From Escherichia coli (lineage in GTDB: Bacteria > Pseudomonadota > Gammaproteobacteria > Enterobacterales > Enterobacteriaceae), in the NCBI RefSeq assembly GCF_003334355.1, contig NZ_QOWP01000101.1: a stretch of 780 bases of DNA; one strand, given 5' to 3'. The notes beneath the pieces are model-generated. The model did no database searches and was not told the DNA's origin. It worked only from the letters and a program-made list of their open reading frames with translations. Shown here in pieces: positions 1 through 780 of the stretch (positions are counted from its first letter, which is position 1; each line of letters begins with the position of its first letter). The translations under genes and the position numbers were made by a program.

Positions 1-328
1 CGGATATTGGCGCACCTCCGCAGCTACTGGCAAAATAGCCAGGACTCCACAAAACGCCTTTGTAGTAATACCTGACTGCAATATCTGGTCGATCTCGTCG
101 CAGTAACCTACCCGATACGCCTTTGAGGCTGTTTACCAGACTGGATATCGCCAGTTTGGGAGGATAGTTAATTAACAAATGGACGTGATCTGGTTCGCCA
201 TCCATTTCAACCAGTTCAGTTTCAAAATCAGCACATACATTTGAAAAGTAAGTGCGTAGTTTTTCTGTCGCGTCATAGTCAAAAATCTGACGTCGGTATC
301 TGGTGACAAAGACCAGATGAACATGCAT
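1..328 (-). CDS. tnpA: IS200/IS605-family Y1 (HUH) transposase TnpA; 3' end continues past position 1; alternative in-frame upstream start at ATG 391..389
   Basis: Minus-strand translation from ATG 328..326 is open to the window edge: MHVHLVFVTRYRRQIFDYDATEKLRTYFSNVCADFETELVEMDGEPDHVHLLINYPPKLAISSLVNSLKGVSGRLLRRDRPDIAVRYYYKGVLWSPGYFASSCGGAPIS. It shows the beta-1 motif HLVFVTRYRR (compare YHIVWCPKYRR in IS608/IS200 TnpA), the HUH motif DHVHLL (plus coords 179-187) and the catalytic Tyr context SPGYFASSCGGAP (Tyr codon at 37..35). The same frame stays open upstream to ATG 391..389 (adds MILWSVKKETDIRRGRHCVFL) and closes at TGA 445..443. Neither start has a strong Shine-Dalgarno (GGAAGG is about 16 nt upstream of ATG 328). 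Confidence 0.88.
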   Translation of the reverse strand, partial: MHVHLVFVTRYRRQIFDYDATEKLRTYFSNVCADFETELVEMDGEPDHVHLLINYPPKLAISSLVNSLKGVSGRLLRRDRPDIAVRYYYKGVLWSPGYFASSCGGAPIS

Positions 329-370
329 CAGGAAAACACAATGCCTTCCACGCCGGATATCGGTTTCTTT

Positions 371-404
371 TTTCACAGACCAAAGTATCATTTGGCCTGT
401 GAAA
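371..404. repeat. Imperfect inverted repeat / predicted stem-loop: 14-nt arms with one A/C mismatch and a 6-nt loop
   Basis: Left arm 371-384 TTTCACAGACCAAA, loop 385-390 GTATCA, right arm 391-404 TTTGGCCTGTGAAA. Thirteen of 14 positions pair; the single mismatch is 379 A against 396 C. It overlaps the tnpA alternative ATG (391..389) and the tnpB candidate GTG (399-401), and is preceded by a T-rich tract (363-373). Confidence 0.6.
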
Positions 405-509
405 CGACTACAGGCATTTAAATTCCAGTTAAGACCAGGTGGTCAACAGGAGCGTGAAATGAGGCGCATGTCGTTTCGTTTTCAATCGTGCTCTGGCGCT
501 TCAGAATGA
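399..509 (+). pseudogene. tnpB: Frame-0 ORF fragment carrying the conserved TnpB N-terminal motif, out of frame with the tnpB body; likely the original tnpB 5' end separated by a frameshift
   Basis: From GTG 399 in frame 0: VKRLQAFKFQLRPGGQQEREMRRMSFRFQSCSGASE, stop TGA 507-509. AFKFQLRP matches the TnpB N-terminal consensus KAYKFRLYPtkeQ. There is no ATG in this frame before 459. After residue M (459-461) the family-like sequence continues only in frame +1 (GACRFVFN from 463). Confidence 0.5.
448..452 (+). promoter_or_regulatory. Shine-Dalgarno-like AGGAG, 6 nt upstream of ATG 459-461
   Basis: AGGAG at 448-452, spacer CGTGAA, then ATG at 459. The ATG is in frame 0, which terminates at 507-509, so it yields only a 16-codon ORF unless the frame is corrected. 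The motif could also simply be coding sequence (QE) of the frame-0 N-terminal fragment. Confidence 0.3.
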
Positions 510-780
510 GAATCATGAGGCCGGTAATAAATACATCCCTTACGGGAAAATGGCTTCCTGGCTGGTTGAGTGGAAAAACGCCACTGAAACGCAATGGCTT
601 AAAGATTCTCCCTCACAGCCATTGCAACAGTCACTGAAAGACCTTGAGCGGGCTTACAAAAACTTCTTCCAGAATCGGGCTGCTTTTCCCCGATTCAAAA
701 AGCGGGGACAGAATGATGCATTCCGCTACCCGCAGGGCGTTAAGCTCGATCAGGAAAACAGCCGTATTTTTCTGCCGAAA
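463..780 (+). CDS. tnpB: TnpB/OrfB (IS605 OrfB family, RNA-guided nuclease family), N-terminal region only; continues past 780; 5' end frame-disrupted, so start is undefined and this may be a pseudogene
   Basis: Frame +1 translation 463-780 has no stops: GACRFVFNRALALQNENHEAGNKYIPYGKMASWLVEWKNATETQWLKDSPSQPLQQSLKDLERAYKNFFQNRAAFPRFKKRGQNDAFRYPQGVKLDQENSRIFLPK. It matches recalled TnpB N-terminal signatures: G-x-CRFVYN (here GACRFVFN), L-x-x-AYKNFF, FP+FKKK (here FPRFKKRG) and I-x-LPK. An in-frame TGA sits at 460-462 directly before the conserved Gly. The first canonical start in this frame is ATG 550-552. Confidence 0.8.

Follow-up and report, generated by a model that had tools for sequence, protein, structure and literature searches.

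The stretch of Escherichia coli DNA analysed here, which is 780 bp long and is referred to below as the window, carries the greater part of a tnpA gene and the front part of a divergent tnpB gene (Table 1). When 5,426 complete E. coli genomes were searched, all 780 bases of the window were matched in E. coli chromosomes at 99.9% identity, which was the best value obtained; a 100% match was not present among these genomes. The locus of strain MCJCHV-1 (L001), in which the window corresponds to positions 3501-4280, differed from it only at window position 112. All sequence past base 780 was read from such near-identical proxy genomes, in which 1 of the 780 window bases is different. In MCJCHV-1 the site lies between yjfZ and ytfB, within the split TetR/AcrR pseudogene ytfA, and the PGAP labels are 'IS200/IS605 family transposase, incomplete' for tnpA and 'RNA-guided endonuclease InsQ/TnpB family protein, frameshifted' for insQ.

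Over 1.74 kb, the DNA was 96.9-98.1% identical to copies in which PGAP names the tnpA gene 'IS609 family transposase', and IS609 identity was judged on these PGAP-named copies. By this sequence comparison the window element is a copy of IS609, a member of the IS200/IS605 family, that lies within the pseudogene ytfA. Intact IS609 is 1,748 bp in length and consists of a left-end hairpin, a minus-strand tnpA, a plus-strand tnpB and a right-end hairpin. Both IS609 and InsQ/TnpB are already catalogued, and the frameshifted allele has already been flagged in RefSeq by PGAP. A literature search showed that surveys of E. coli genomes list IS609 as a matter of routine; for IS609 together with TnpB, or for insQ, it returned only genome surveys and one TnpB screen. 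What the window contains is, with high confidence, the front third of a recently inactivated tnpB (insQ) pseudogene belonging to an IS609 copy in ytfA.

Table 1. Features located in the 780-bp window (positions are those of the window).
Feature	Position	Strand	Basis or remark
tnpA, Y1/HUH transposase, codons 1-130 of 143	1..391	-	ATG at 391-389, open translation
Spacer of 7 bp between the two divergent start codons	392..398	.	PGAP CDS in L001 and L003
Hairpin, 7 pairs, covering the tnpB GTG start	395..415	+	Terminator-like scan
tnpB start and codons 1-23, original frame	399..509	+	GTG start, TGA at 507-509
Deletion junction, one AGGCGC left	462..467	+	Alignment with four intact IS609 copies
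tnpB codons 26-131 of 402, rest of the WED/REC N-terminal region, shifted frame	463..780	+	
Met54 codon, first in-frame start after the frameshift	550..552	+	Would give a 348-aa truncated product

The window encodes a TnpA with 3 amino acid differences from the intact O157:H7 TnpA; the C-terminal 13 codons, including that of the catalytic Tyr, lie to the left of the window. The MCJCHV-1 tnpA gene matched the NCBIfam model transpos_IS200 with an E value of 5.2e-43. In MCJCHV-1, KFu019, K-12 ydcO and other copies the tnpA stop codon is changed from TAG to CAG (L001 3460-3466, element position 60), and readthrough of this CAG runs via the left end into ytfA, giving an ORF of 204 aa as against 143 aa; copies that have lost the stop in this way are called 'missing C-terminus' by PGAP. 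Strain J3 carries a deletion-allele copy with an IS1A insertion close to the tnpA/tnpB start region, at about window position 360-380 (L002 3889-4586).

With so short a spacer between the tnpA and tnpB start codons, each gene must have its promoter within the other; a scan of the whole 780-bp window detected no sigma-70 consensus. Three terminator-like sites were detected in the window, compared with 0.7 expected from shuffled sequences. A terminator-like hairpin with a T-run is located at window 580-598 on the minus strand, antisense to tnpB and ~190 nt upstream of the tnpA start.

The ends of the element were located in the MCJCHV-1 locus. A left-end hairpin (CCCCGTCCTTCAGGGCGGGG) lies just inside the left end and the element is preceded by TTAT at L001 3399-3402; a right-end hairpin (CCACGTCCTTCAGGGCGTGG) follows the tnpB stop codon, and the last four bases of the element are TCAA, at L001 5136-5139 (window-equivalent 1636-1639). 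In proxy genomes the ytfA flank expected straight past TCAA reads CACATCAGTATGG. The arrangement of TTAT immediately before the element, a TCAA end and unrelated flanks was exact in all four of the independent insertion sites (4/4). An IS200/IS605 element with both of its hairpins, beside a short target motif, is therefore the setting in which this tnpB gene is found.

To rebuild the empty ytfA site, the 150 nt up to and including TTAT on the left (L001 3253-3402) were fused to the 150 nt on the right that begin with CACATC (L001 5140-5289). Of the 5,426 complete genomes, 3,249 had this sequence uninterrupted, K-12 derivatives and BL21 among them, and roughly 1,750 had a split site, the insertion being polymorphic. 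Since the empty site was found whole, the ends are fixed to the base and there is no target duplication; exact ends without target duplication are hallmarks of the IS200/IS605 family.

Reading frames of tnpB and the 11-bp deletion

The sequence-only reading had assigned positions 463-780 to a TnpB module of an IS200/IS605 element, an assignment that was borne out by matches to both NCBIfam and Pfam profiles. The 463-780 frame consists of 106 uninterrupted codons that run off the end of the window, and it reads GACRFVFNRALALQNENHEAGNKYIPYGKMASWLVEW... from its first codon. This fragment matched the NCBIfam model NF040570 (guided_TnpB) with an E value of 4.9e-23 and 82 bits, over profile positions 20-138 of 389, and NF038281 (IS200_TnpB) with an E value of 2e-19. 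The 82 bits fall under the whole-protein cut-off of 100 because the sequence is only a fragment; the full downstream frame in the 99.9%-identical MCJCHV-1 locus scored 368 bits against NF040570 (cut-off 100). When the two frames were joined, Pfam returned HTH_OrfB_IS605, OrfB_IS605 and the Cas12f1-like_TNB zinc ribbon. The match of the window fragment to the TnpB family is far beyond chance. As was also stated in the sequence-only reading, the window holds only the N-terminal region of the protein, that is, the N-terminal third, with codons up to 131 of 402.

Position 463 is merely the first codon past a stop in the downstream frame, and the start of the gene is the GTG at 399. From this GTG the frame reads VKRLQAFKFQLRPGGQQEREMRR, followed by 13 unrelated residues and the TGA at 507-509, to give a 36-aa product whose first 23 residues are identical to those of intact InsQ/TnpB. 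No ATG, GTG or TTG is present in the tnpB frame between 463 and 550. The gene in the window is TnpB by descent but a pseudogene, and the one feature of a tnpB gene that it lacks is an intact ORF, its frame being shifted after codon 23.

The cause of the shift was identified by alignment with four intact IS609 copies: the O157:H7 ytfA ortholog (L003), K-12 ydcO (L004), yedK (L005) and yeaR (L006). The intact copies read GAAATG-AGGCGC-TTCGC-AGGCGC-ATGTCG and the window reads GAAATG-AGGCGC-ATGTCG, so that the 11 bp AGGCGCTTCGC have been lost between two AGGCGC repeats; the exact breakpoint is ambiguous within the AGGCGC repeat. This 11-bp gap was the sole indel of the window with respect to the intact copies in an alignment that also included the MCJCHV-1 locus. 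When the 11 bases were restored, a 402-aa protein was obtained with 7 amino acid differences from the TnpB of O157:H7, of which 3 fall in the window. The loss of 11 bp between 6-bp direct repeats is, as judged from the sequence, the signature of replication slippage. A slipped-strand deletion of this kind would end translation from GTG 399 after 36 codons, and we infer that TnpB function has been lost from the window copy.

The distribution of the deletion was determined with a 76-nt query spanning the junction. It matched 167 records at 99% identity or above and 9 at 95-99%, and 4,895 other records were matched only with an 11-nt gap; the deletion allele is thus carried by about 170 of the 5,071 matching E. 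coli records (~3%). The exact 30-nt junction pattern had no match in the GTDB representative genomes. The lesion is considered real and lineage-restricted because it is common to many independent assemblies and is found in ~3% of records. The 5' disruption of tnpB that had been suspected from the letters of the window therefore exists, as an 11-bp deletion at 462-467 relative to the intact copies.

It could be argued that the gene is really intact, with a frameshift that was introduced in sequencing or assembly, or one that ribosomes overcome by programmed +1 frameshifting; a +1 shift anywhere in 463-507 would indeed rejoin both frames. The probability of this explanation is close to nil. An error is contradicted by the occurrence of the same 11-bp gap in 167 independently assembled complete genomes, and by the signature of real slippage, between 6-bp direct repeats, that the gap displays. 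As to recoding, no known +1 slippery motif or upstream Shine-Dalgarno stimulator was seen on inspection of 463-509, the product of a +1 bypass would lack or miscode the residues from 24 onward to the site of the shift, and the intact IS609 copies need no recoding. Programmed +1 frameshifting was rejected on the lack of a slippery motif in 463-509 by inspection.

The downstream part of the element and its putative guide RNA

In the MCJCHV-1 locus the shifted frame is open to a stop codon at L001 5094-5096, ~816 bases past the end of the window. The remaining 377 tnpB codons are intact in the near-identical genomes, and they have no start before Met54. Intact TnpB aligned end to end with the ISDra2 TnpB structures 8H1J/8BF8 (E value of about 1e-52), and the motifs GLDAG, VIEDL and NADVN coincided with the columns of the RuvC Asp-Glu-Asp triad in ISDra2 TnpB, corresponding to D183, E267 and D363 in MCJCHV-1. 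The zinc-finger CxxC...CxxC residues C334/C337 and C353/C356, as well as a match to Pfam PF07282 (E value of 2.7e-24), were found in MCJCHV-1, that is, in the proxy genome only. The 99.9%-identical genomes consequently contain what had been expected downstream: the D-E-D triad of the RuvC motifs, both zinc-finger Cys pairs and a right-end subterminal hairpin in an element that ends in TCAA. Neither absence of the remainder of tnpB, nor loss of its motifs, nor lack of a right end was encountered in these genomes.

The guide-RNA and right-end region corresponds to window-equivalent positions ~1450-1639, which is roughly 0.7-0.86 kb past the window end. The expectation that it would lie just outside the window was not upheld, since it begins ~0.7 kb further on in the near-identical genomes. 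When the ~190 nt at the right end of the element were scanned with Rfam, no family exceeded its gathering score. Sub-threshold matches of the 3' region were obtained only to HgcC (E value of 0.011), RAGATH-18 (0.077) and sot0042 (0.11), which we take to be RNA families that overlap tnpB 3' ends. The 3' region folded better than shuffled sequences (z-score of -2.7). An alignment that took in diverged copies from Salmonella, E. albertii and Klebsiella plasmids gave a consensus fold with several stems and 47 pairs, 6 of which had compensatory changes, the alignment comprising 8 sequences, several of them near-identical. These features are consistent with a putative omega RNA, with modest structural support. 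For the structured RNA looked for at the tnpB 3' end there is a putative fold, and the Rfam matches lie only below threshold.

Right ends related to that of IS609 were also observed on plasmids. Between repB and parA of the IncY plasmid CP057875 (L019 1148-1286), an IS609-like element is represented by its final ~145 nt alone, at ~80% identity. This remnant comprises the guide-RNA-like scaffold and the right-end hairpin with no tnpB upstream, and the point at which its homology begins coincides exactly with the start of the long-range closing helix that was predicted. It may represent an orphan right end, or else what is left of a guide RNA. An Rfam scan of this tnpB-less remnant gave nothing relevant. 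Two Klebsiella plasmids (L016 and L018, positions 1501-1740 of each) carry IS609-related right ends at ~81-82% identity, with no upstream tnpB in the PLSDB table, which reflects either incomplete annotation or further tnpB pseudogenes.

If IS609 behaves like ISDra2 and IS608, its intact TnpB would bind a guide RNA (omega RNA or reRNA) that comes from the 3' end of tnpB together with the element's right end. The guide would be the ~16 nt of flank just past TCAA, which at this site is CACATCAGTATGGTTT. The complex would be predicted to cut TTAT-flanked copies of CACATCAGTATGGTTT, in other words the empty donor site that is left after excision, and cutting of the empty site would bias repair to restoration of the element, so that its retention would be favoured. 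The assignment of TTAT as the TAM of IS609, like that of the guide, is drawn from these analogous systems and is to be read as probable.

A guide RNA might still be made from the window copy and loaded in trans on an intact IS609 TnpB encoded elsewhere, to target empty TTAT-CACATCAGTATGGTTT ytfA sites, in which case the module would retain part of its function. The 3' region, the right-end hairpin and TCAA are unchanged in the deletion-allele genomes, some of which (H11, H14, H15 and H72) have 3 IS609 places, and the intact TnpB copies elsewhere have 97% DNA identity. This possibility is nevertheless considered unlikely, since MCJCHV-1 and many other top matches hold a sole IS609 place and there is then no partner protein, and since a sigma-70 scan found no promoter consensus near the 3' region. 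Production of the guide RNA may need transcription of tnpB and protection by TnpB, as in other elements. It is considerably more doubtful that the copy acts as a guide-RNA-only module that polices the ytfA site, either through use in trans by another TnpB or because a protein started at Met54 keeps RNA binding. The ytfA site that would then be policed is polymorphic, and about 60% of E. coli genomes lack an insertion there.

Decay of the ytfA insertion and comparison with known systems

The IS609 insertions at ytfA were found in several states. In O157:H7 both tnpA and tnpB are intact; in C325 tnpA is frameshifted and tnpB intact; and in 23a and FDAARGOS_1281 the tnpA stop has been lost or an internal stop gained, with tnpB intact. 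In JML285 and eco-241 tnpB is broken by other small indels, and MCJCHV-1 and KFu019 carry the 11-bp tnpB deletion.

Pairwise dN/dS across IS609 copies was about 0.15-0.45, as expected if the gene still functions in most lineages. The two deletion-allele copies, MCJCHV-1 and KFu019, differ at 15 tnpB sites with a dN/dS of 0.32. They are identical up to element position ~951, save for site 871, and their haplotypes switch after ~991; a site table showed that the differences on the 3' side match alleles of other lineages. Since these differences match the haplotypes of other lineages, they are older than the deletion haplotype. Constraint acting after the frameshift, as an explanation for the value of 0.32, was rejected because the differences are all 3' of the recombination breakpoint at ~951-991. 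The breakpoint corresponds to L001 about 4342-4382, to the right of the window. The IS609 copies at ytfA are recombination mosaics, and naive dN/dS values between copies are therefore misleading.

These data bear on the suggestion that a 348-aa TnpB initiated at Met54 (window 550) has been kept, for example as a domesticated RNA-guided binder or regulator. Its 348-codon ORF is open in MCJCHV-1 and includes all catalytic and zinc-finger residues, and the dN/dS of MCJCHV-1 versus KFu019 over the 15 sites could be read as constraint. That signal, however, is an artefact of recombination. The product would also be without its first 53 residues, which aligned to the WED/REC N-terminal region of ISDra2 TnpB and include the conserved RFVFN. 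An Asn in the N-terminal region near RFVFN is among ten functionally critical TnpB residues (PMC12781874). Moreover, only about 3% of records carry the deletion allele, the ends of the transposon are still intact, and the gene is bordered by a broken TetR gene and a tnpA in decay, a setting that differs from that of known exapted TnpBs. Retention of such a product is accordingly regarded as highly improbable.

Of the two fates that the sequence-only reading had offered, decay or domestication, decay is supported by the slippage deletion, by its presence in ~3% of records and by the differing lesions. Domestication is not, as the ends and the catalytic residues are intact and no selection was detected after the frameshift; the pattern of an exapted TnpB, in which nuclease residues and ends are lost and the gene is conserved beside host genes, was not seen in the window allele. 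The best-supported reading is that of a recent, lineage-restricted pseudogene, and domestication is without support.

The copy has little importance beyond its correct annotation. The 11-bp AGGCGC slippage deletion marks one haplotype of the ytfA insertion and is a precisely dated kind of lesion. At one chromosomal site, ytfA presents a natural series that passes from empty, through fully intact and tnpA-dead/tnpB-intact, to tnpB-dead, and this series could aid study of the influence of TnpB and its guide RNA on the retention and decay of IS200/IS605 elements.

Among known systems, IS609 itself (tnpA/insP and tnpB/insQ, with the K-12 insQ beside ydcO) shares 97-98% DNA identity with the window element over the whole 1.75 kb, and the divergent tnpA and tnpB genes, the end hairpins, the TTAT target and the TCAA end are all as in the window copy. 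Unlike the intact IS609 copies, the window copy has the 11-bp tnpB deletion, and the closest genomes are also without the tnpA stop.

The TnpB of ISDra2 from Deinococcus radiodurans (8H1J, 8BF8/8EXA), the reference RNA-guided nuclease, has the same RuvC columns, Cys residues and domain order, and its size of 408 aa compares with 402 aa for IS609 TnpB. The two proteins are nevertheless distant in sequence, tnpA is divergent from tnpB in IS609, and the probable TAM of IS609 is TTAT, whereas that of ISDra2 TnpB is TTGAT. A TnpB of the IS609 group has been purified and screened for trans-cleavage, the individual result being absent from the text (PMC12781874).

With IS608 of Helicobacter pylori, the model for single-strand transposition, the window element has in common subterminal hairpins at both ends, insertion 3' of a tetranucleotide without duplication and a TCAA right end. 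These shared features are established properties of IS608, in which the target is TTAC and tnpA and tnpB are co-directional; the window element, in contrast, targets TTAT and has divergent genes. Finally, TldR and other exapted, nuclease-dead TnpBs resemble the window allele in that their ORFs descend from TnpB but have ceased to serve as a transposon nuclease. Exapted TnpBs such as TldR have lost the RuvC residues and the transposon ends and are conserved beside host genes, whereas the window allele keeps the catalytic residues and both ends, and its frameshift is found in few genomes.
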